Shown here piece by piece: positions 21,033 through 40,931 of a DNA stretch of 64,000 nt; the first letter of the stretch is position 1; every line of letters begins with the position of its first letter. The translations under genes were made by a program, and so were the position numbers. The notes under the pieces were generated by a model. It was given only the letters and a program-made list of their open reading frames with translations, made no database searches and had not been told where the DNA came from. Location of the stretch: NCBI RefSeq assembly GCF_054482525.1, contig NZ_CM137006.1; one strand, given 5' to 3'.

Positions 21033-22230
21033 TGATCCTACCCGCGTAATGTGGACACGCTCCTAAGCGAGATTCTGGTTTTCAAACTGTTTCGGGCTGA
21101 GGCCGCCATAATCGCTGTGACGCCGCCAGCGATTGTAATCGCACTTAATCCGCCGTCCGCATGATTTCCCGGCTGATAAAGCGTTCTCCGTGGATACACT
21201 CGACTTTTAACGAGTGTAAGAAGCTTTCCGCACAGGCATTATCATAACAGCAACCTTTTGCGCTCATGCTGCCATGCAGATTATGTCGTTTCAGCAGAGC
21301 CTGATAATCCGCTGAGCAGTACTGCCCGCCACGGTCGGTGTGAATTCGCCGCCACAGCGCCATCTGCAGTGCATCACAGGCAAGTTCTGCCGTTATTTGC
21401 GAGGACACCAACTAGCCAATAATAGCACGCGACCACCAGTCTATAACCACGGCAAAGTATAACAAGCTTTCATCGATGCGAAGGTACGTGATGTCACCAG
21501 CCCACTTCTGGTCCGAGCCACTAGATCTGAAGTCCTGCTTCAGCAGATTCTCCGGCACTGGCTGGTCGTGAGCACAGTAGATTAACGGGCTGAACAGACG
21601 TGAGGTTTTTGCCCGCAGGCCCTGACGACGCGAACTGTTGCTATCGTTTTGATGTTGTATTCCGGCGGCTCGTCTGCAAGACGAGCCGCACCATAACGCT
21701 GTTTTGCCTCAACGAATACCTTACAGACAGCTTCATTGAAGACGCACCGGAACTGTTGCCGATGGCTCAGTTGGGGACGACGCAGACACCAGGTATACCA
21801 GCAGCTGTGCGCCACGCACAGCACCCGACACATAGCTTTGATACTGAACTCAACCTGATATTTTTCGATAAAGATATACTTCATTTCAGGCGCTACGCGA
21901 AGTATGTCGCGCCCTTTTGGAGAATAGCCAACTCATTATCCCGCTCAGCCAGTTGACGTTTGAGGCAGGCAATCTCCGCTGCTTGTGCGCTCTCTCTCAG
22001 AGGATATTGTCTGGTGCAGTTGTTTGTAGAGCTGGGAATCGTAAAGGCTGAGTTCACGGGCGGTAGTGGCCACACCGAGACGTTCGGCCAACTTAAGGGC
22101 TTCTTCACGAAATTCAGGCGTGTGTTGTTTGCGTGACTTTTGTTGATTGATGCTGATTTTGTCATGTGAGCTACCTCTGATTGAGAGTTTACTCGCTTAG
22201 TCCCGTGTCCACTATTGGTGGGTAGGATCA
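21033..22230 (-). mobile_element. Degraded IS3-family insertion sequence (frameshifted orfA, interrupted orfB)
   Basis: Terminal inverted repeats tgatcctaccc (21033) and gggtaggatca (22220); ORFs 21893..22231, 21582..21884 and 21145..21411 match InsE C-terminus ([23 protein letters not shown]) and InsF N- and C-terminal parts, but not as continuous frames. Confidence 0.75.
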
Positions 22231-22579: not shown

Positions 22580-24313
22580 ATGTACATAGCAAAAATTAAA
22601 TTTACAAATTTCAAATCATTCAAAGAGATGTCTTTTGAGTGCAATGATAAATTCAACATAATTGTTGGTGAAAATAATATTGGTAAAAGCACATTATTTG
22701 AGGGGGTAAGTTTATGGAAATATGCTTATGACAACCTTATTCAAGAAAAAAACAAAAACAAATTCTACAAAGCTTCAACTAACTACTACATTACCTATTC
22801 TACACTCGATCAAATAAGACTTGTTGACGATATTGATATTTTTAACGACCCAAAGAATAGCTCCGCATCAATATGCATTACAATTAAAGATGAACAAAAT
22901 GAATTTGATTTAGAGATTAGATTTGAAAAGCCAGGGATTAAAAATTCATACTTACGGATATTTAATAGCAATGGTTCTGATAATGACACACAGTTTTCAA
23001 ACTTTGAACGATTCTCAAACTATATAAAAGAAAAGGATTGCACTCTAAAAGATGCCATTTACATTTACCAAACAAGACCAATATCAACTATTTTTAGAGA
23101 TGAGCCATTTTACAATAATGCGCAGATAGAGAAAAAAATAAATATTGGAAAGTCACATGATGTCTTAAGGAATAAAATATTAAAAACCGAAAATACTCAA
23201 GCCACAAGGGTTGCACAAAAATTTGAAAATCTTGAGATTCGCCTACAAAAAGTCCTTGGTGAAAACTATATCTTAAAATTTAAGAATAGAAATCGAATCG
23301 ATGATGAGTATGTTAAAATAACTGCAACAAAGGAAAACGGGAAAGAATTGGAAATATCACTTATGGGTAGTGGTTTTTTGCAAGTCTTAGAGATATTTTC
23401 AACAATTGAGTATATGGAAAAGAATTCAACCGGTATTAACCTCATTCTTATCGATGAGCCTGATTCACATATCCACTCAAATTTACAAGCAAATTTAATT
23501 GACGAACTAAAGCAACAAACAGCATGTCAAATTTTTGTCATAACACATAATGACAGACTAACATCAAAAGCTAATGAAGGTGAGCTTTTTTATCTAAATC
23601 AGATAGTTAAGGATCTTGGTTTATTGTCTCACCTTGAAATATCTGATTATTCAAAAGTTAAAGATGGTCTAGCTAATGTACTAACAGCTATAAATGATGG
23701 AGATGAAACACCCATTGTTATAACTGAAGGAAAAACGGACCAGAAAATTTTAACAACTGCTTGGGAAAAGCTAAACCCAGGAACTCCTATGCCTTTTAAA
23801 ATAATTTCATCCGGCATTCAAATTGAAGAGGAAAAAAGAACTGGGTGCGCAGAGGCAGTTAGAAGATCTTTAGAATACATTTCAACATTAACTGATAGAA
23901 CAATTATCGGTTTATTTGATAATGATCGGGAGGGAAATGAGCAGTTCAAAGGATTAAATCGTTCTATTTTTGAACCTCATGACCTGCAAAATAACTCCCG
24001 AAAACATCAGATAAAAAATATCTATGGGCTTATTCTTCCCGTTCCTGTGCATAGAGAACGTTTTGTACAAAACAATTCTTTAACGCAGCGTTACTTCGTA
24101 ATTGAACAATATTTCCAAGATGAAATATTACTACAGCATAACATGAAAGGTGAGTCAATATTAGGTACTGAGGTATTTTTTGTTAATGACTCAAGAAAGA
24201 ATGAGTTTTCAGAGTCAACCAATGACCTTCCGGTAGAATGCTTTGGGGATTTTAGTATTTTATTCGATAAAATTTCCGATTTATTGGCTAACAATAGACC
24301 AGAAAACACTTGA
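22580..24313 (+). CDS. OLD-family ATP-dependent endonuclease (ABC-type ATPase + C-terminal TOPRIM)
   Basis: Walker A GENNIGKST, Walker B/H-loop LILIDEPDSHIH, TOPRIM glutamate IVITEGKTD and DxD motif FDNDREG; 577 aa; strongly AT-rich codon usage. Confidence 0.7.
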   Translation: MYIAKIKFTNFKSFKEMSFECNDKFNIIVGENNIGKSTLFEGVSLWKYAYDNLIQEKNKNKFYKASTNYYITYSTLDQIRLVDDIDIFNDPKNSSASICITIKDEQNEFDLEIRFEKPGIKNSYLRIFNSNGSDNDTQFSNFERFSNYIKEKDCTLKDAIYIYQTRPISTIFRDEPFYNNAQIEKKINIGKSHDVLRNKILKTENTQATRVAQKFENLEIRLQKVLGENYILKFKNRNRIDDEYVKITATKENGKELEISLMGSGFLQVLEIFSTIEYMEKNSTGINLILIDEPDSHIHSNLQANLIDELKQQTACQIFVITHNDRLTSKANEGELFYLNQIVKDLGLLSHLEISDYSKVKDGLANVLTAINDGDETPIVITEGKTDQKILTTAWEKLNPGTPMPFKIISSGIQIEEEKRTGCAEAVRRSLEYISTLTDRTIIGLFDNDREGNEQFKGLNRSIFEPHDLQNNSRKHQIKNIYGLILPVPVHRERFVQNNSLTQRYFVIEQYFQDEILLQHNMKGESILGTEVFFVNDSRKNEFSESTNDLPVECFGDFSILFDKISDLLANNRPENT

Positions 24314-25088
24314 TACTGTACTGCATTTTCCATATCGAGCTAAAACGGACCATTCGCTTTTAAAGTGATTACGGCATACGGGACAGATTTTCCTTAAAGC
24401 AAACGTCTCCTTCACGCCCTGAGACATTCGACATTAAGTAAGAACGGGGGTGCGCCTCGAGTGCCAGCAAATATTTTGCTTCGTCGTAGCGGGTTCTGGT
24501 CATCCAGCAGCTGTAAATGATCCTTATCCATTTATACGCCAGAGCCCAAATGGCTGATTGATGCGATTTTCCTTTTCTTCGCAGCTCTTACTAATAAAGT
24601 CTGGCCCAGAATGATGAGTTAATCGTCTTTGCAGCCCATTCCACGAATGTCTGTCGGACGAGCTCCGCACATTGCCAACATCAGTGTACCCAAGATTTCT
24701 GGCCGCTTTGTTCTGTCACCGGAAAAATACCTGCGTAGTTTTGAATTTCTTCAGCGCAGTTTAACTGGTCACGGTTACTTGAAGAAAGAAACTGACCACT
24801 GCGCTCGTCGTTCGGAAGTGCCAGGGCTATCGGTGGATATTAAGGGAAACCTGACAGCCGGAGGTAATCAGGGTTATTAATGCCGTCAGTGTGGGCCCCG
24901 CTACCAGTGAAACACTAATGTATTGATTAAGTTTCATATTCTTCCTTAATGAAAATAAGCATGTTTTCTTTTGCTAAATCAGTCGTCGTTGGCGATGAAA
25001 CCGGCTCACACATCACGCGATTGTTAAATGAAAAAGCCCCTATTGCGTGAGCAACAGGGGCTATATTTATTTTGTGTCTATAGAGGCA

Positions 25089-25499
25089 TCAGTAACCAGT
25101 TTTAACCTTGTACATCAATAGTGTTTTACTGCCCCGGACAATTTTCACATACAGGGCATTATCTTTCGTGCCTCGCACAAAACCGGCCTGCACATCGCCC
25201 TTACAGTCACCACCGTCGTAAGGAATATTGACACCTGTCTGACGCACCAGATCAATAACCCCGAAGCTTAAGTCCTCACAGGCCGGGCCCGGCAGGTCCT
25301 GAATCAGGGCAAATTTATGGTCGTCGCTGACACCGGTCAGTGAGCACATGGAGGTATTGATGTCGTTTCCCTGGCACCAGTACTCCTGACCGGGATTATC
25401 TTTATCCATCAGACTTGCCGGAAGCTGAGCGGCACCGGCACTGAAGGCGGCAAGTGACAGAATGAGGGCGGGTACAGCAGAGGTCATTATTTTCAGCAT
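25089..25499 (-). CDS. Hypothetical secreted Cys-containing protein
   Basis: Signal peptide MLKIMTSAVPALILSLAAFSAGAA; 136 aa. Confidence 0.5.
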   Translation of the reverse strand: MLKIMTSAVPALILSLAAFSAGAAQLPASLMDKDNPGQEYWCQGNDINTSMCSLTGVSDDHKFALIQDLPGPACEDLSFGVIDLVRQTGVNIPYDGGDCKGDVQAGFVRGTKDNALYVKIVRGSKTLLMYKVKTGY

Positions 25500-25565
25500 G
25501 GTTTTCTTCCTGAATTAATCCAGCCCGCTGTCGGGCAAAATGAGGGAGGTTGGTATCGGGTATTA

Positions 25566-26003
25566 TCAGAAGCGCCGGTAGCGAAACAGCTCTTTGCCCT
25601 GGTAAAGTGCCACCAGGTCGTCATATTCCGGCTTCTTCTGGTTGGGCTTAAAGGTCACTACCGTGCCCGGACGGCACAGATCTTTTACGGTGAGACCGAA
25701 TTTCCTATCCGGAGTAATGGTGAATCCCTTCGACACATCGTTGTGCATGATAGTTATCCAGCCCCACAGGCCGCCTTCGCAGTCCTTAAAGGGTGCTGAA
25801 CGAACTGTTACCATCCCACCCAGGCGGTCAACAGACATGGCTTCACATTTTCCGGTAACCTGTCGATGCGCATCACACCAGAAAATATTCCCGTTGTTGT
25901 CATTGACGACTGCAGGTAGCGTTCGGTTATAAGGCTGAGCCTGAGCGCCCACACAGAGCAGAAGGCTGCCGGTAATACCCAGTACTTTAATCAGTGTTTT
26001 CAT
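25566..26003 (-). CDS. Hypothetical secreted Cys-containing protein (possible paralog of 25089..25499)
   Basis: Start trimmed to MKTLIKVLGITGSLLLCVGAQA signal peptide; similar size and Cys/Trp spacing to the neighbour. Confidence 0.5.
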   Translation of the reverse strand: MKTLIKVLGITGSLLLCVGAQAQPYNRTLPAVVNDNNGNIFWCDAHRQVTGKCEAMSVDRLGGMVTVRSAPFKDCEGGLWGWITIMHNDVSKGFTITPDRKFGLTVKDLCRPGTVVTFKPNQKKPEYDDLVALYQGKELFRYRRF

Positions 26004-26044
26004 TACGTTGGTCCTTAACAGAGAAAGAATCAGGTAGCAGTCAT

Positions 26045-26581
26045 TCAGGCCCAGACGGTCAGGCCCAGCATCAAAAGCCATACCCAGAAGTAAGCCGGTT
26101 TCTGACCGAGAGTTTTCGCCCGCCGCCACAAATAGAACGGCACCAGCCAGGCCAGTTTGCCGAACGTGGTAGTGTCCACTCCGGCCTTACGAAGGCGTCG
26201 TTCATCGAGATACCCCAGAGCGATATTGAGCAGCAGCGTGATAAACCAGTACTGCCCACCCGAGACGGCATCATATGCCTCGTCAAATGACATCCCGCTC
26301 AATCCTGCAGTCCACAACTCCAGCGCGTAGCCAATGAAGGGAGCAAATGCAAGCGTCCACACAACGCCACCCGGAATGCGGTTCCCCGTCAGCGCTGGCG
26401 GTGTGGTGCTGTGGAGCAGCGCCGAAGCCAGCGGGGTGGCGGAGACCGGTTGCCAGTCCGGCATGCCCTGTCGCCACACCAGCGTGGCAGCGGTGAGTTC
26501 ACCGCGCTTAATCAGGTTAGTGATGTCGTCTTCGGTCACATTGTCGTGACGTATGCCATTTTTCTCGTAATGCCAGGTCAT
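26045..26581 (-). CDS. Membrane protein with N-terminal DUF4339/GYF-like domain
   Basis: N-terminus WHYEKNGIRHDNVTEDDITNLIKRGELTAATLVWRQGMPDWQPV followed by hydrophobic helices. Confidence 0.5.
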   Translation of the reverse strand: MTWHYEKNGIRHDNVTEDDITNLIKRGELTAATLVWRQGMPDWQPVSATPLASALLHSTTPPALTGNRIPGGVVWTLAFAPFIGYALELWTAGLSGMSFDEAYDAVSGGQYWFITLLLNIALGYLDERRLRKAGVDTTTFGKLAWLVPFYLWRRAKTLGQKPAYFWVWLLMLGLTVWA

Positions 26582-26606: not shown

Positions 26607-27317
26607 TTAAATCAGTGTATTGCCATGCTCCTCCTCAGAGGGCCCATGAGACAGGACTTCGCGAATACAGCTGAAGTGCGGAAGAGCCCGAATAAAGCCC
26701 GCCTGTGTGGTTAACTGGCTGAGACGTTTTCGCGGGGTAAAAGTGGTGTTCAGGACTGTCACCGCATGGATGGTCGCCAGAGGGTGCACAGTGATATGCC
26801 CGTTAAGTTCACCGGTGAGGTACCAGCAGCCGTCGAGTGATATCAGGCGGTACGGAGCCAGCCCGTCACAGCGCTCTCCCTCGGCCAGCAGCAGTACCCG
26901 CTGGCAGGCGGTAATGGCACTGACGAGACGGTAGAACACCAGTGAGATGGTCGGTGACACAGACTGTGGCGGCTGCCATACCAGACACGGCATCCCTCCC
27001 GCAGTGAGCAACATGCCCGCCAGACGCCGGTCCAGCCCCGGAAAAATATCGGCCAGTCCGGCCCGGTGTGCGAAGGTCAGCGCATCAAGCTCCCCCTGTA
27101 CGCCCCCACCGGTGCTGCGCAGGCGGCATTGCCCCCGTCGATACTCAAGGTCGAGGTACATCAGCCGTTCGCGAAAATCCCGTCGCAGGGTACGGACTGA
27201 CACACCAAACTCTGCAGCCAGCCGCGCCATGTTCAGCGTTTCACCGGCAACCAGGCGGCTGATTATCAGTGACAGCCTGACAGCCAGCCGGTCATGACGG
27301 CGATCTGCCTGTGTCAT
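26607..27317 (-). CDS. HTH + WYL-domain transcriptional regulator
   Basis: N-terminal HTH (LNMARLAAEFGVSVRTLRRDF) and WYL motif (LISLDGCWYLTGE). Confidence 0.7.
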   Translation of the reverse strand: MTQADRRHDRLAVRLSLIISRLVAGETLNMARLAAEFGVSVRTLRRDFRERLMYLDLEYRRGQCRLRSTGGGVQGELDALTFAHRAGLADIFPGLDRRLAGMLLTAGGMPCLVWQPPQSVSPTISLVFYRLVSAITACQRVLLLAEGERCDGLAPYRLISLDGCWYLTGELNGHITVHPLATIHAVTVLNTTFTPRKRLSQLTTQAGFIRALPHFSCIREVLSHGPSEEEHGNTLI

Positions 27318-34753: not shown

Positions 34754-36853
34754 ATGAACCGAGAGCAAGCCCAACAACTGCTGCAGACTGCTTTGGCTAA
34801 CCCTGCTGCTGAATTTCGTGATGGTCAGTGGGAAGCCATTGATGCATTGGTTAATCGTCGTCAGAAACTACTGGTTGTACAGCGTACCGGCTGGGGTAAG
34901 AGCTCGGTTTATTTTATTAGTACTAAAATCTTCCGTGACCGCGAGATGGGGCCTACGATTATTGTATCGCCACTGCTTGCATTAATGCGTAACCAGATTG
35001 ATTCAGCGCAGCGTTTGGGAATAGTTGCCGAAACAATGAATTCGGCTAATAGGGAGGATTGGCAGGCTGTAACTCAACGAATTCTCAATAACCAAATAGA
35101 CTGTTTGCTCATTTCCCCAGAGCGGCTAGCAAATGATACCTTTATTGAGACGGTCCTTCAGCCCATTGCCGATCGAATCGCCCTAATGGTAATTGACGAA
35201 GCACACTGTATTTCAGATTGGGGTCATGATTTTCGTCCTGATTATCGCCGTATCGTAAATATCCTTCGTCAATTGCCCGCCAACACCCCAGTACTAGGTA
35301 CGACTGCAACTGCCAATAACCGAGTTGTTGACGATATCCAAGCCCAGCTTGGGGATATACAAATCCACCGAGGTCCTCTTACTCGCGAAAGCCTCGCTCT
35401 GCATACAATGTCTTTACCCGATCAGGCATCTCGTTTAGCTTGGCTCGCCCAAGTTATTCCGATGCTACATGGAACAGGCATTATTTACGCATTAACAGTT
35501 CGTGATGCCGAGCAGGTGGCAGAATGGTTGAGCATGCACGGTATAGTTGCCATGGCATACCACGGTAGCATCGAGGCTGAAGGTTTTGAGAACAGCAATG
35601 CTTACCGTCAGTACTTAGAAGAATTGTTACTTAACAACCAGCTTAAGGTTTTAGTAGCAACGACCGCGTTGGGTATGGGTTATGATAAACCTGATTTAAG
35701 TTTTGTAATCCATTACCAAGCTCCGAGTTCAATTGTTGCATACTACCAGCAGGTGGGTCGGGCTGGGCGCGGTATTGCTCATGCAACAGGTGTACTGATG
35801 TCGGGGATAGAAGATAACGACATCCATGATTTTTTCCGTGATTCTGCATTTCCATCGGAGGATCAAGTTAACGATATTCTTCGAGTGTTGGAAAATAATG
35901 ATGGTCTATCACTCCGCAACATCGAGGAAAAAACTAACCTACGCCACGGCCAGATTGAGAAAGTACTTAAGTTACTGAGTGTAGAAAATCCAGCCCCCAT
36001 CATTAAAAATGAAAATCGTTGGGTTAGGACCACAGTTCGCTATCAAATGGATCATGCCCGAATTGCTCATTTGACAGGACAACGTATTCAGGAATGGGAA
36101 GAGGTTCAAGCGTACCTTACCGACACTGGATGCAAAATGGCATTTCTACGTCGTTCTCTGGACGATCTCGACCCAACTCCATGTGGTAAATGCTCGTCCT
36201 GTATTGGTCAACCAATTATAAATCAAATCATTGACCCTGCTTTGGTACATCGTGCAGGGACTTTCCTAAAACATGCAGAAATGCCGATTACTCCAAAAGC
36301 TCAGGTAGCAGCTAATGCTTTTTTGCAATATGGCTTCAGCGGCAATTTGCCACAGCAGATTAGAGCACAAGAAGGTCGAGTGTTGTCTCGCTGGGGAGAT
36401 GCTGGTTGGGGACGGTTAGTAGCCGATAATAAACGTGCAGATCACTTTGATGATGAGCTAGTGGTTGCTATGGCCGAGATGATTCAGCAGCGTTGGCAAC
36501 CGAATCCAGCGCCACAATGGGTATGCTGTGTACCTTCACGCAATCATGTACAATTAGTCCCTGATTTCGCTCGCCGCTTGGCGGCATGTTTGAGGTTGCC
36601 TTTTTTCAATGCCATCAGCAAGGTTAGAGATAACCAACCTCAAAAGGGGCAACAAAACCGTTTCCATCAATGCCGCAATCTGGACGGTGCTTTTGAGATA
36701 AATCAACCTCTACCTAACACACCGGTTCTACTTGTAGATGACATTGTAGATTCAGGCTGGACGTTAACTGTCATCGCAGCACTCCTACAACGCGCAGGTA
36801 GTGGTAAAGTATACCCTGTTGCACTTGCTTCATCTTCGGTAAAAGACTCATGA
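34754..36853 (+). CDS. RecQ-family helicase fused to a C-terminal phosphoribosyltransferase-like domain (PsyrT-like)
   Basis: Helicase motifs GWGKS (I), DEAH (II), TATA (III), QQVGRAGR (VI); C-terminal type-I PRTase motif VLLVDDIVDSGWTLT. Confidence 0.8.
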   Translation: MNREQAQQLLQTALANPAAEFRDGQWEAIDALVNRRQKLLVVQRTGWGKSSVYFISTKIFRDREMGPTIIVSPLLALMRNQIDSAQRLGIVAETMNSANREDWQAVTQRILNNQIDCLLISPERLANDTFIETVLQPIADRIALMVIDEAHCISDWGHDFRPDYRRIVNILRQLPANTPVLGTTATANNRVVDDIQAQLGDIQIHRGPLTRESLALHTMSLPDQASRLAWLAQVIPMLHGTGIIYALTVRDAEQVAEWLSMHGIVAMAYHGSIEAEGFENSNAYRQYLEELLLNNQLKVLVATTALGMGYDKPDLSFVIHYQAPSSIVAYYQQVGRAGRGIAHATGVLMSGIEDNDIHDFFRDSAFPSEDQVNDILRVLENNDGLSLRNIEEKTNLRHGQIEKVLKLLSVENPAPIIKNENRWVRTTVRYQMDHARIAHLTGQRIQEWEEVQAYLTDTGCKMAFLRRSLDDLDPTPCGKCSSCIGQPIINQIIDPALVHRAGTFLKHAEMPITPKAQVAANAFLQYGFSGNLPQQIRAQEGRVLSRWGDAGWGRLVADNKRADHFDDELVVAMAEMIQQRWQPNPAPQWVCCVPSRNHVQLVPDFARRLAACLRLPFFNAISKVRDNQPQKGQQNRFHQCRNLDGAFEINQPLPNTPVLLVDDIVDSGWTLTVIAALLQRAGSGKVYPVALASSSVKDS

Positions 36854-38175
36854 ATGTATCTAACTTATTGTCAAAAACAGCCCAGGCGACCTTACTTCTG
36901 ACTAGTTATTTTTCTAAAGCAACTAGCGAAAACGCCAAACCACTTTCCAACGCCGAATGGGGACGTTTTGCGCTATGGTTGAAAGAAAAAGCAGTTACGC
37001 CAGCTGACTTGTTGGACTCTGATCCTCAAACCTTACTGAATGGCTGGTACGACTCCCGTATCAGTACGGATCGGATCATTGAGTTGATGAATCGAGGACA
37101 TAGCCTCGCTTTGGCTATGGAGAAATGGCAACGGGCAGGCTTGTGGGTAGTGACACGTTCTGATCCAGAATATCCATGGAGATTAAAACATCGGCTTAAA
37201 ACAGACTCTCCCCCTGTTTTATTTGGCTGTGGCAATAAAGCCTTATTAAATAGAGGGGGATTGGCTGTCATTGGTTCTCGAAATGCCAATGCATCAGACC
37301 TTACTTTTACTGATCACATCGGCGTTAAAGCTGCGGACGAAAATATAGCTGTTGTATCTGGTGCTGCACGTGGAGTAGACGAAACAGCCATGTTAGGTGC
37401 AATGAGGCAAGGTGGAGTTGTAATCGGGATTTTGGCAGATAGCCTGTTAAAAGCTGCGACTAGTGCCAAATGGCGCAAGGGGCTTATGAATGACCATGTT
37501 GTGCTAATATCCCCTTTTTACCCTGAGGCTGGTTTCTATGCGGGAAATGCCATGGCTCGCAATAAATATATCTATTGCTTGTCGGATAGTGCATTGGTTA
37601 TTCATTCTGGTCGAAAAGGTGGAACAATTAGTGGGGCAGAGGAAAATCTTAAGAAAGGATGGGTGCCACTATGGGTCAATCCAACAACCGATCTAGATTC
37701 AGCTAATGCTGACTTAGTGAGCAAAGGGGGACATTGGTTGCCAAGTGATAGTAATGGCCTATCCATCGAGAATTTGCTTAAAAATAATGACAGATCAAAA
37801 ATGCAGTTAAAAGCAGAGCCCCAAGATCTTTTTTCAGAATTGTCGCATCCAGAATTAATTATTGGATCTGCAGAGAAATCGTCAACTCAAGCTCTCGAAA
37901 AAGATTGGACTGCTACTATTAATGAAGAAACTCCCAACCTAATAACTACGGAAAAAAAATTAGAGGAAAAAGAGTTAGATGTAAATCCTATAGACTTTTA
38001 TCTGCTATTCAGGACAGAATTACAGCGATTGGCCGAACATCCAATTACAGTAGATAGGTTGACAGAAGTCACTGGGTTGAATAAATCGCAAGTGCTTGAT
38101 TGGTTGAAACGTGCTGAACAAGATGGTTTGGTAAAAAAACTAAACCGTCCTACAAGATATCAATTAAATGAGTAG
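36850..38175 (+). CDS. DprA/Smf-like Rossmann-fold protein with C-terminal winged helix (PsyrA/ShosA-like)
   Basis: DprA core LAVIGSRNA...VVSGAARGVDETAMLGA...GGTI; ATGA start/stop overlap with the upstream helicase gene. Confidence 0.75.
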   Translation: MNVSNLLSKTAQATLLLTSYFSKATSENAKPLSNAEWGRFALWLKEKAVTPADLLDSDPQTLLNGWYDSRISTDRIIELMNRGHSLALAMEKWQRAGLWVVTRSDPEYPWRLKHRLKTDSPPVLFGCGNKALLNRGGLAVIGSRNANASDLTFTDHIGVKAADENIAVVSGAARGVDETAMLGAMRQGGVVIGILADSLLKAATSAKWRKGLMNDHVVLISPFYPEAGFYAGNAMARNKYIYCLSDSALVIHSGRKGGTISGAEENLKKGWVPLWVNPTTDLDSANADLVSKGGHWLPSDSNGLSIENLLKNNDRSKMQLKAEPQDLFSELSHPELIIGSAEKSSTQALEKDWTATINEETPNLITTEKKLEEKELDVNPIDFYLLFRTELQRLAEHPITVDRLTEVTGLNKSQVLDWLKRAEQDGLVKKLNRPTRYQLNE

Positions 38176-38356: not shown

Positions 38357-39346
38357 TTATGTCTTTCTTTCAAGTGCAACTCCTAGATCCGCTGCCATTT
38401 TTTGGATTAGCCTCCAATCTAGCGGCCATTCTTTTTCTAAAGTAGATCTCCGTCTTTTGATTAACCAGTAAACGAAAATAACAACGCTTTGTTCAAAGAA
38501 ACTACTCCCTTCTTTGCCATCCTGAATTAGTAGTTCGAGCTCAGGAGTCTCTTCTATAAATTGATGTAATCTTTCTATCGTATCGGGTTTGATCACTTCT
38601 TTAAATGTATCTAGAATTAATAAAGTCGATTTTTGATTGTTTGGTTTATTCTTTGTTAAAGCTATGTAGATATTATCTAAAGTTCGCTGAATTCCTGCGT
38701 AACCATCAGATGCTGCGTTAATTGCTTTCGATACTGAACAGAAAAAATCATCCGTAGTTTCTATTAACGCCATGCTTTTTGCTACAGTTCTATGTATATC
38801 TGGTTCAACTATAGTTTTTGCTTTATATATGGCATCATGAGTTAACTCGGCATAGGCATGTTGTAATAAAGATCTAACCTGTATCTCACATGGAATGCCT
38901 TGTTCAATGATAACTCCATTATAATCAAAGGATTCTTTTGCAGTTACTATAAAATGTACGGATTGATACGTGAAAATTAATGGTGTATTTAATCTTTCTT
39001 CTTCGTAGTGTCTTGATGTCTTATAATGCCATTTATTACTACTTTTTATTATTTCACATATTTCATCTATATCTGAAGTAAGTAAAACGACAAACCTGAT
39101 GCCAACTTTATCTTCAATCTCTTGGTAGGGGTTTTTGTATGATTTTTCTTTTCGATGAAAAGCTTTATCGATTAGAGATGTCTTTTCTTTTATTCTCGGT
39201 GTCGCAGGTTGCTTGAGAAAGCTATTGAGGTCCCGCTCTTTATTTTCTGAGAGTTCTTTGCAAATATTTGAGACGACAAAATCTCCCCATGCTTTATACA
39301 TGGGTAGTTCTTTTTCCCAAAGTTGCGAAAACTCTAATTCATTCAT
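38357..39346 (-). CDS. RelA/SpoT-fold nucleotidyltransferase (toxSAS-like)
   Basis: Synthetase-domain signature PRIKEKTSLIDKAFHRKE, GIRFVV, YQSVHFIV and CEIQVRSLLQHAYAELTHDAIYK (EIQIRT..QHxWAE..H..YK); AT-rich. Confidence 0.7.
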   Translation of the reverse strand: MNELEFSQLWEKELPMYKAWGDFVVSNICKELSENKERDLNSFLKQPATPRIKEKTSLIDKAFHRKEKSYKNPYQEIEDKVGIRFVVLLTSDIDEICEIIKSSNKWHYKTSRHYEEERLNTPLIFTYQSVHFIVTAKESFDYNGVIIEQGIPCEIQVRSLLQHAYAELTHDAIYKAKTIVEPDIHRTVAKSMALIETTDDFFCSVSKAINAASDGYAGIQRTLDNIYIALTKNKPNNQKSTLLILDTFKEVIKPDTIERLHQFIEETPELELLIQDGKEGSSFFEQSVVIFVYWLIKRRRSTLEKEWPLDWRLIQKMAADLGVALERKT

Positions 39347-39354
39347 TAATTAGC

Positions 39355-40446
39355 TCATTCCTGAAGGGTTATCTTGTCCTTGATGAGGATTGTTGTCCAC
39401 TCAGCAGGTTTACCATCTTTATCGAGTTCACCTATAGTAGATTCAATTACAATATGGCTTTTAAAAACTTCCGCAGGGGCTGTGATTTTTATATTTTTAC
39501 TAAAGTTAAGCTTTCTTGTTTTTAATTTGCTTTCAATATGCTCGTTGTCTCTTGTGAAAGAGGTTTGTGGTATACCAGATTCATGAGCATACTCAAGATA
39601 AAGATCCTTAATACTATCATCAAAAAATCTTTCAGCATAATCTTTAGCTGAAATTACATCCGATTTTTCATGTTTAAGATATGTAACTAATGCATTTTTA
39701 AGCACATTTTTCTTTTCCTCGCTGACATCCAATTCATTAAGAAATTCACTCGTTTTTTCATAGAAATTCTTTGTTGTGCGGGCACTTGTTTCTGGGTAAC
39801 CGCAACCTAAAAAATTTTGATAAAAATATTGTGCTGCAGCTTTACCATCCGACTTACTGATTTGATAGTCAGAAATCATCACATCCCAAGATTTATTAAG
39901 ATCAGTATTATCAAGAGAATTGGTTGATTGGAAAAAACCGGCAGTTTTATAAAGTTTTGTGGATGGTGTAAGTAATATTTCTTCAACGAATTTTAATGAT
40001 ATTTGGCCCGTTTTATCGTCGATTACTTTTTCATATGCACTATAAATATCAGCCTTGATAATTCCAATGAATTTTCTTTTATTTACACCATAGTCGCCAG
40101 AAAAGATTACTACAATTCCGCCTGGAATTGCTCGTCTTGTCTGCGCATCTGCCAGTTTATTAGCTATTGTGTAAGTCTCATCAATATAATCCTCTCCCTC
40201 TTTATCAATTAAAGTTGTAGCAATATAAGGAACATAATCTTTTCCATGCTCCTTTATTTGCATTTTTACGGCTTTAGAACCATCACCTAAAGCGTCGATT
40301 ACTCGTGATTTAAAACCTTGCAAGGCATCAGCATCAAATTTTATAAATGAAGAACCTCTTGTTGGTTCTATTTTGTTTCCTTCTTCGTCGCGCTGATGAA
40401 TTTGGTGGATAATTATTTTGTTAATATTCATTTTGCTGATATTCAT
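39355..40446 (-). CDS. NA37-family nucleoid-associated protein homolog (YejK/NdpA-like)
   Basis: Similarity along the whole length to remembered YejK: N-terminus INKIIIHQIHQRDE vs INQIALHQLIKRDE, and central and C-terminal blocks; AT-rich. Confidence 0.65.
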   Translation of the reverse strand: MNISKMNINKIIIHQIHQRDEEGNKIEPTRGSSFIKFDADALQGFKSRVIDALGDGSKAVKMQIKEHGKDYVPYIATTLIDKEGEDYIDETYTIANKLADAQTRRAIPGGIVVIFSGDYGVNKRKFIGIIKADIYSAYEKVIDDKTGQISLKFVEEILLTPSTKLYKTAGFFQSTNSLDNTDLNKSWDVMISDYQISKSDGKAAAQYFYQNFLGCGYPETSARTTKNFYEKTSEFLNELDVSEEKKNVLKNALVTYLKHEKSDVISAKDYAERFFDDSIKDLYLEYAHESGIPQTSFTRDNEHIESKLKTRKLNFSKNIKITAPAEVFKSHIVIESTIGELDKDGKPAEWTTILIKDKITLQE

Positions 40447-40463
40447 TTCTGTGTAGTTCCATC

Positions 40464-40931
40464 TTATTGATTATCTGATTTTATATTTTTGCTTTCAATA
40501 TATTCTTTGTGAATATTATTCCATTCTTGACTGTCTTTTTCCCAAATAGATTTATATTCATCAAAAAGACTATCAATATCTGACTGGGTTACATCTTCTT
40601 TGGATTTTAAGTAATTAACTTTGTTTCTAAGTTGATACATGGCTAGCAAAGTAGCTTTTTGCCTAAACCATAATTTTTGATAATCAAATCTTGCAGTCCA
40701 CCCACTAACTAGAGTAAGACAGGCACTCACAATAAGAGCAGAATTTTTCTGTATTTTTTCATATCCAGATAAATCGAAGGCTAATATCAGTGTAGTAATA
40801 GTGCTCAAAAATATAGTCATGAAAAAAAATATTTTTAATTTTTTTTTATTCCATTTCGCCTTGCACTTTATTATGTTGATACTTTTATGGATTTCATCCA
40901 GTAAAAACTGTTGAGAAGATGTTATAGACAA
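40464..40931 (-). CDS. Small 2-TM membrane protein, SLATT-like
   Basis: Two hydrophobic helices (FFFMTIFLSTITTLILAF, ALIVSACLTLVSGW) followed by a charged helical tail; first gene of the three-gene operon. Confidence 0.5.
   Translation of the reverse strand: MSITSSQQFLLDEIHKSINIIKCKAKWNKKKLKIFFFMTIFLSTITTLILAFDLSGYEKIQKNSALIVSACLTLVSGWTARFDYQKLWFRQKATLLAMYQLRNKVNYLKSKEDVTQSDIDSLFDEYKSIWEKDSQEWNNIHKEYIESKNIKSDNQ

Follow-up and report, generated by a model that had tools for sequence, protein, structure and literature searches.

Two putative periplasmic paralogs of a CP4-type genomic island belong to a four-cysteine protein family that is also carried by jumbo phages

The window analyzed here, a 64,000-nucleotide stretch of contig NZ_CM137006.1 (RefSeq assembly GCF_054482525.1), contains a CP4-type genomic island in which three adjacent genes, designated A, B, and C, stand behind a regulator gene, R. 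Genes A and B encode small, putatively exported proteins that are distant paralogs of one another and belong to a family with four invariant cysteines, and sequence comparison relates both to members of a tandem gene array conserved in jumbo phages; gene C encodes a GYF_2 domain attached to a membrane region. We hold the descriptive parts of this account jointly and with high confidence, namely that the family exists, that A and B are paralogs, that jumbo phages share the family, and that the genes fill this operon slot. The complete explanation adds a function that we infer, in which A and B would represent an undescribed small periplasmic family with an envelope-protecting binding or inhibitor role; taken whole, it is a tentative proposal, possible rather than probable.

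Sequence features of A, B, and C

All three genes lie on the minus strand, gene A at 25089..25499 (136 aa, WP_000912998), gene B at 25566..26003 (145 aa, WP_000853946), and gene C at 26045..26581 (178 aa, WP_000219796). RefSeq annotates the same three genes in Escherichia coli SCU-102, whose chromosome is 100% identical to the window, with A and B named as hypothetical proteins and C as a DUF4339 protein. The annotated start of B is MKTLIK, and the longest open reading frame (ORF) runs beyond it to 26129. An AGGA-type ribosome-binding site, read from the sequence, is found 6–8 nt before the ATG of each gene.

A description of this region made from the sequence alone (the earlier note) had presented A and B as two adjacent small ORFs with signal peptides, which the ORF calls, the RefSeq genes, and the N-terminal sequences bear out. 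Read by eye rather than with a dedicated predictor, both N-termini combine positive charge, a hydrophobic core, and an AxA-type site (AGA followed by AQ in A; AQA followed by QP in B), features by which A and B would be exported to the periplasm. Lipoprotein status was considered for both proteins and rejected: A has no cysteine in its signal peptide, and Cys17 of B, which is not conserved in the family, is preceded by LLL, with no lipobox. The rejection is based on the sequences, although one relative in the AlphaFold database (AFDB) is labeled "Lipoprotein".

The mature domain of A comprises about 113 aa with four cysteines. These are Cys42, Cys52, Cys74, and Cys99 in A and Cys43, Cys53, Cys75, and Cys110 in B, such that the spacing from the first to the third, C-x9-C-x21-C, is identical in the two proteins, whereas the fourth follows after 24 residues in A and after 34 in B, which has the longer insert between the third and fourth cysteines.

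In C, residues 3–50 match Pfam GYF_2 (PF14237) with an E value of 9.9e-13 over profile positions 1–48 of 50. A Pro-rich linker follows this domain and leads into a C-terminal membrane region, and three segments of the protein are strongly hydrophobic (residues 69–91, 108–127, and 162–178), in agreement with the earlier description of a GYF-like domain on a membrane anchor. Because C has no signal peptide, its GYF_2 domain is presumed to be cytoplasmic.

Paralogy of A and B

That A and B are paralogous, with similarly placed Trp-Cys and Cys residues, had been suggested in the earlier note, with pairwise alignment named as the check. This comparison gives similarity above chance, with a BLASTP E value of 8e-5 over 62 residues and, for the A family against the B family, an hhalign probability of 89–91% (E ~1e-6) in which all four cysteines are aligned; the four are invariant across both families and the phage relatives described below. 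A MAFFT alignment of both families runs end to end and contains the invariant elements LP, G, WC, C, P, C, G, G, D, C, V, and Y. Phage relatives close the distance further: island B matches phage A with an hhalign probability of 98% (E 3e-13), and phage A matches phage B with 98.4% (E 5e-15). On these alignments A and B are distant paralogs, and it is the phage intermediates that make the case conclusive.

A family shared with jumbo phages

Neither A nor B has a match in Pfam, NCBIfam, or PADLOC, and a search of PDB sequences with the family profile returned noise only (transferrin and glucokinase, with E values above 0.4). Close homologs of A and B are confined to Enterobacterales, across which the reading frames are intact; every one is annotated as hypothetical, in keeping with the earlier remark that none of the genes has an obvious function. 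A combined profile of A and B, searched with HMMER against 1.8 billion representatives, recovered about a dozen full-length distant members, whose contigs hold runs of three to five small signal-peptide genes. The four cysteines, in the pattern C1-x6-9-C2 ... C3 ... C4, are invariant in alignments of 17, 43, and 49 sequences, which suggests the presence of two disulfides.

Searches of GenBank phages by tblastn with A and with protein P0136 identified 48–49 records, all of them jumbo phages of ~200–250 kb with Erwinia, Salmonella, Escherichia, or Proteus as hosts. The genera matched are Seoulvirus (SPN3US), Machinavirus (ChrisDB and Caitlin), and Erskinevirus (Asesino). The phages carry a conserved tandem array, X-B-A-D (labels given here to its members), that sits a few genes upstream of an SMC/SbcC-like gene. 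The array corresponds to SPN3US_0180-0183 in SPN3US (locus L014, 4084–5793), with counterparts gp203-205 in ChrisDB and gp201-204 in Asesino and further array loci at L015 (4611–5792) and L009 (991–2608). The number of paralogs per phage array is 3–5, and the metagenomic contig L009 has five in tandem. Apart from the SbcC-like protein, the neighbors of the array are of "unknown function" in PHROGs throughout, and no lysis cassette is found near it.

Profile comparison relates the island proteins to individual members of the array. Island A and phage A align with an hhalign probability of 99.9% (E 2e-34) and island B and phage B with one of 99% (E 1e-17), and judged by these alignments the island proteins are orthologous to the phage A and B types, respectively. 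The closest phage relative of protein A is gp204 of Erwinia phage ChrisDB (Machinavirus), with 53% identity. The D type is clearly related to the family (95–97.5%) and the X type possibly so (78%). In PHROGs, A falls into phrog_8968 (E 9e-31) and B into phrog_8968 (1e-7) and phrog_17072 (3e-6), while D and X correspond to phrog_5248 and phrog_9424. The order B-then-A is seen in SPN3US, Asesino, SPAsTU, and SNUABM_29, and in Seoulvirus and Erskinevirus the B-like gene immediately precedes the A-like one, as in the island. The phage arrays and the island thus have the signal peptide, the four-cysteine framework, and the B-then-A order in common, whereas the X and D types of the phages are absent from the window island, and the GYF_2 membrane protein and WYL regulator of the island are absent from the phages.

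Other islands carry family members with different phage affinities. The island of E. coli 1008S19 encodes a 150-aa B-like protein that is 49–51% identical to B of Seoulvirus (SPN3US) and Erskinevirus (Asesino), and the islands of UMNK88 and O157 strains encode a 137-aa A-like protein that is 43% identical to A of Erskinevirus (Asesino). Since the nearest phage relatives of different island lineages fall into different genera, the sequences point to repeated movement of these genes between jumbo phages and islands. A scan of IMG/VR with the A family returned island-like proviruses only.

In the searchable literature, nothing was found on what yfjS or yfjT does, on DUF4339 in this context, or on SPN3US gp180-183, and the study of essential genes and the virion of SPN3US does not mention SPN3US_0180-0183 in its main text. 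The A/B family has no prior description beyond its PHROG clusters, and its sharing with jumbo phages and its propeller-like predicted fold are apparently unreported.

Island setting, operon, and regulator

The earlier note had placed the genes in a genomic island, and the island is of CP4 type, integrated at the tRNA-Thr gene thrW beside proA, the same thrW site that the cryptic prophage CP4-6 occupies in K-12. The local gene order is GTPase (YeeP-like), DUF932, a 236-aa regulator, C, B, and A. The regulator (R; 26607..27317, minus strand), a helix-turn-helix (HTH) plus WYL protein, is 58% identical to K-12 YfjR and is taken as its ortholog; it matches the PADLOC WYL model at 2e-19 over residues 10–225 and Pfam HTH_DeoR at 3e-4, and its match to Pfam WYL is weak (0.2). 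The gaps R–C, C–B, and B–A measure 25, 41, and 66 bp, and a strong terminator-like hairpin (25035..25062, minus strand), with G-C in 7 of its 12 pairs and a T run behind it, lies 27 nt past the stop codon of A. Because the gaps are short and a terminator follows A, R-C-B-A looks like one operon, with R as its first gene and the hairpin probably marking its end.

Control of the operon by the YfjR ortholog is putative. In genomic SELEX (gSELEX), the only reported target of YfjR is its own yfjR operon (PMC8249747), and ChIP-exo did not find YfjR binding under the conditions of that study (PMC8464067). WYL regulators of the BrxR/CapW type are described as controlling defence genes and sensing single-stranded DNA (ssDNA), and by this analogy a WYL regulator would be circumstantially fitting for a protective operon.

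In K-12 CP4-57, yfjR is followed by ypjK (a small membrane protein), yfjS (a lipoprotein), and yfjT (an exported protein). C-B-A of the window occupies this ypjK-yfjS-yfjT slot, which corresponds to the yafY-ykfB slot of CP4-6. The architecture of regulator, membrane protein, and two exported proteins is the same in CP4-57 and in the window; the proteins in the slot differ. The order common to the K-12 CP4 islands and the window is GTPase-DUF932-YfjR-[membrane protein]-[two small exported proteins]-...-RadC-YeeU-CbtA; the membrane partner in CP4-57 is the 79-aa YpjK, whereas in the window it is the GYF_2 protein C.

Sibling islands of E. coli and Yersinia retain the block GTPase-DUF932-R-C-B-A; behind it comes DUF905-antirestriction-RadC-DUF987-YeeU-CbtA in some and variable defence cargo (such as HNH plus NERD helicase, or CBASS) in others. 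In the window, the region past A is broken up by a transposase remnant, an OLD/GajA-like nuclease gene, and an IS3 copy. By comparison across these siblings, R-C-B-A belongs to the conserved backbone of the CP4-type island.

Distribution of gene C and its companions

Several sequence classes of C together account for its presence in 145–164 of 5426 complete E. coli genomes. In all four classes sampled in E. coli, C has an exported-family member within one gene; gene order and companions vary, and the latter include YfjS/YafY, IrmA, and 188- or 211-aa exported proteins. Genomes with a family member, 78 of UMNK88 type, 46–49 of 1008S19 type, and 25 of A type, add up to roughly the number with C, and a family member beside a DUF4339 gene is found in about 150 of the 5426, including O157 strains and ATCC 8739. 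The B type is found in 18 of the 5426. B-type genes without C lie directly after a WYL regulator, beside a resolvase, or alone before RadC. Because B-type genes occur without C and the phages lack it, C is best viewed as a frequent island partner that stands outside the core function of the family.

The variants of this region differ in their surroundings. In the most common one in E. coli (78 genomes, UMNK88 and O157 type; locus L026, 4641–8516), the DUF4339 gene and an A-like gene lie downstream of genes for dynamin-family, RdcB-family, and patatin-like phospholipase proteins, with no YfjR regulator. In 1008S19 (L027, 3480–3932) and in ATCC 8739-type islands, an IrmA-family secreted protein gene adjoins the DUF4339 gene in the same slot, which in 1008S19 further includes genes for a B-like member, a YfjS/YafY lipoprotein, and a 211-aa exported protein that ends in Cys. 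Exported proteins of diverse kinds seem to accumulate in this slot. IrmA was considered as a member of the A/B family and rejected, having no similarity to it. A related exported pair of 188 aa (L028, 3383–3949) and 211 aa (L027, 5534–6169), with the N-terminal motif W..M....W.SADGYDD and the C-terminal motif LQQW...QSL.ELC.RTGNC, is found in the B position or the post-regulator position of other islands and is unrelated to A and B.

Relationship to YfjS and YafY

YfjS, YafY, and YfjT, which fill the corresponding positions in K-12, are likewise without an assigned function. YfjS matches Pfam PF20494 at 1.7e-68. An alignment of YfjS, YafY, and a third homolog compared with the phage D type gives an hhalign probability of 88% (E 3e-6) over 124 columns, at full length, with the third and fourth cysteines matched and a common motif, C-E/P-x-G-[SY]-Y-Y. 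A Foldseek search with the model of A, described below, also reaches proteins labeled "Lipoprotein YfjS/YafY domain", weakly (E 0.08, TM ~0.5). Together these comparisons suggest that YfjS/YafY is probably a remote relative of the A/B family. A and B are not filed in the YfjS/YafY family, since no significant PF20494 match is found in A, B, or the D set. With hhalign probabilities under 3%, the idea that A or B is a direct homolog of YfjS or YfjT of K-12 was rejected. The proteins also differ in kind, YfjS being a lipoprotein with two cysteines and A and B being putative SPase I-type exported proteins with four.

YafY is an inner-membrane lipoprotein of unknown function whose overproduction activates Cpx and whose deletion has no phenotype in the assays reported (PMC6538781). 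Its probable kinship with the family, together with the IrmA-family gene beside DUF4339 in 1008S19, raises the alternative that A and B are cargo without an antiphage role, serving in envelope stress as YafY and Cpx might suggest or in interaction with an animal host as IrmA might. The presence of homologs in lytic jumbo phages that infect Erwinia, Salmonella, and Proteus speaks against an animal-host factor, as does the dissimilarity of IrmA to the family, and activation of Cpx on overproduction is not a physiological function, the deletion being silent in the assays cited. We regard this alternative as distinctly unlikely.

Predicted fold

An AlphaFold model of mature A, built with A as the query of an alignment of 43 diverse sequences, has a pLDDT of 87.7 and a pTM of 0.80. 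The modeled structure is all-β, with seven main strands and additional short N-terminal strands, and matches two-blade pieces of β-propellers, among them the designed Pizza protein and 6r5x, an 8-bladed propeller composed of four 2-bladed fragments. Foldseek searches of AFDB and of viral structures returned uncharacterized relatives and generic propeller domains only. The predicted fold of A is best described as a two-blade propeller-like unit, in which the probable disulfide pairing would be C1–C2 and C3–C4.

This fold is reminiscent of periplasmic inhibitors of peptidoglycan hydrolases, as Tsi1, PliI, and X-Tfi are partial propellers (PMC3391265, PMC10933484). The likeness has limits. Tsi1 (a type VI secretion system (T6SS) immunity protein), PliI (an i-type lysozyme inhibitor), and Xanthomonas X-Tfi(XAC2610) have no sequence similarity to the A/B family, and none of the three is among the fold matches listed for the model of A. 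The model of A shows two blades, in contrast to the three sheets of Tsi1. The partner of these inhibitors is an adjacent effector gene, whereas no effector or hydrolase gene is adjacent to A and B. The resemblance is therefore treated as a lead suggested by analogy and not as family membership.

A two-blade unit also raises the question of assembly. Two-blade units of A and B, or of X, B, A, and D in the phages, could form a closed propeller of four to eight blades that binds an envelope glycan or protein in a lectin-like manner, perhaps with C as anchor, in which case the role would be structural or sensory rather than inhibitory. The match of A to 6r5x and Pizza speaks for such an assembly, as do the nearly constant tandem arrangement of the paralogs and the co-occurrence of C with family members. 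Single family members nevertheless occur alone, paralog numbers between 1 and 5 speak against a fixed stoichiometry, and C has only a short predicted periplasmic loop and is absent from phages. We consider an oligomeric propeller unlikely.

Selection and gene decay

Selection was estimated gene-wide by the method of Nei and Gojobori on E. coli and Yersinia copies from eight loci, six of them from E. coli and two from sibling islands. The dN/dS ratios are 0.115 for A, 0.094 for B, and 0.168 for C, alongside 0.152 for the regulator, 0.055 for DUF932, and 0.127 for the GTPase, with dS of about 0.4–0.8. Ratios of 0.09–0.17 indicate that A, B, and C are under purifying selection, like the rest of the island backbone.

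These estimates bear directly on the possibility that A and B are decaying passenger genes or misannotated ORFs. The rarity of the family in E. coli (A in 25 and B in 18 of the 5426 genomes), the truncated A fragments fused to IS3 in some genomes, and the failure of a simple scan to find a promoter would all suit decay. Against it stand a dN/dS of ~0.1 across E. coli and Yersinia copies at a dS of ~0.75, frames that are intact across Enterobacterales, an invariant cysteine framework, good ribosome-binding sites, and a confident fold prediction for A, such that decay is scarcely credible as an explanation.

The A fragments are observed in several settings. The last ~142 bases of A (25089–25230) recur with ~90% identity inside features annotated as "IS3 family transposase" in at least five E. 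coli genomes, up to 17 of the 42 genomes that match the 3′ end of A have no full-length copy, and a Raoultella "transposase" (P0104) also carries an A fragment. These fragments are remnants of A that were cut by IS3 insertion and absorbed into transposase annotations.

Purifying selection bears equally on the possibility, raised in the earlier note beside that of inhibitor proteins, that the two proteins form an effector/immunity pair, in which one would be a toxin acting in the periplasm and the other would neutralize it. The two genes are adjacent, co-oriented, and predicted to be exported, and the island also has toxin–antitoxin and defence genes, all of which would be in keeping with such a pair. 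A and B are, however, homologs with the same cysteine framework that align end to end as one fold family; neither matches an enzyme or toxin domain; each is found alone in other islands; the phages hold 3–5 paralogs in tandem; and both genes are under ordinary purifying selection, with no gene-wide diversifying selection. The suggestion fails because A and B are homologous proteins without a catalytic domain that occur separately and in multi-paralog phage arrays, and we judge it very improbable.

Other cargo of the island

Past A, an OLD-family, GajA/AriA-like ATP-dependent nuclease of 577 aa is encoded at 22580–24313 (plus strand), with PADLOC matches to GajA (3e-20) and NsnB (2e-22). Its gene lies between a transposase remnant and a frameshifted IS3 (flanks at 24453–24776 and ~21063–22165), at the position where sibling islands have DUF905 and an antirestriction gene, and it looks like defence cargo inserted by an event mediated by insertion sequences. 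No GajB or AriB partner is annotated beside it. At ~34754–38175 (L001, 29855–33276), the genes for a RecQ-family helicase and for DprA overlap, a combination that is unusual among island cargo. Beside the island integrase, at ~38357–40931 (L001, 33458–36032), are genes for a SLATT-domain protein, a nucleoid-associated protein, and a RelA/SpoT-like GTP pyrophosphokinase, a trio that looks like a candidate defence or abortive-infection module.

Discussion

In the explanation that we propose, A and B would be exported, would form their disulfides, and would then act in the periplasm as non-enzymatic binding modules. They would bind and block an incoming or envelope-damaging protein, for example a muralytic enzyme in the tail of a superinfecting phage or some other peptidoglycan hydrolase, and by this block would protect the phage- or island-carrying cell through superinfection exclusion or an immunity-like effect. 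C may tether the activity of A and B at the inner membrane, or couple it there, through its cytoplasmic GYF domain. Envelope protection is favored because a lytic phage and an island share one interest in the periplasm, namely guarding an occupied cell from competitors, and an inhibitor or superinfection-exclusion role is plausible by analogy, since known periplasmic hydrolase inhibitors are partial propellers.

A phage precedent exists for the kind of function proposed. Spackle (Sp) of phage T4 is a periplasmic superinfection-exclusion protein that inhibits the tail lysozyme gp5. Like A and B, whose family has phage-encoded members, it is small and bears a signal peptide. Spackle is largely helical, a fold unrelated to that of A and B, and the comparison is one of function only, with no homology claimed.

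Several results weigh against the envelope-protection proposal. None of A, B, and C matches a PADLOC defence model, all four PHROGs are of "unknown function", and every relative is annotated as hypothetical. No gene-wide diversifying selection is seen on A, B, or C, which an inhibitor engaged in an arms race might show. No C homologs were found in phages, and B-type genes occur both without C and without A, so that no fixed complex is implied. The link to YfjS is below conventional confidence: PF20494 does not match A, and none of 43 family members reaches E ≤ 0.001 (best 0.09). A structure model with B as query, from a 16-sequence alignment, was unusable (pLDDT 50), and a simple scan found no σ70-like promoter for the operon.

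A broader version of the proposal is improbable in our view. In it, A, B, SPN3US gp180-183, and possibly YfjS/YafY would constitute a new class of disulfide-braced, partial-propeller anti-invader factors in the periplasm that block phage muralytic or penetration machinery or hydrolase toxins. Lytic jumbo phages and CP4-type islands rich in defence genes would have exchanged such factors repeatedly. In the islands, a WYL regulator acting as a sensor of ssDNA or DNA damage would switch them on, and the GYF-domain membrane protein would couple them to the cytoplasm.

The YfjR operon slot, represented in K-12 by ypjK, yfjS, yfjT, yafY, and ykfB, has had no assigned function for decades. The present analysis adds a variant of this slot with a distinct exported family, finds the same family maintained as tandem arrays in jumbo phages, and identifies YfjS and YafY as probable distant relatives. 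It also makes a hypothesis concrete, envelope-level protection or superinfection exclusion, and attaches it to defined gene sets, R-C-B-A in the island and SPN3US_0180-0183 in the phage. If the family proves protective, the defence content of these islands would extend to a periplasmic layer, and the flow of genes between chromosomal islands and lytic jumbo phages would be documented as well.

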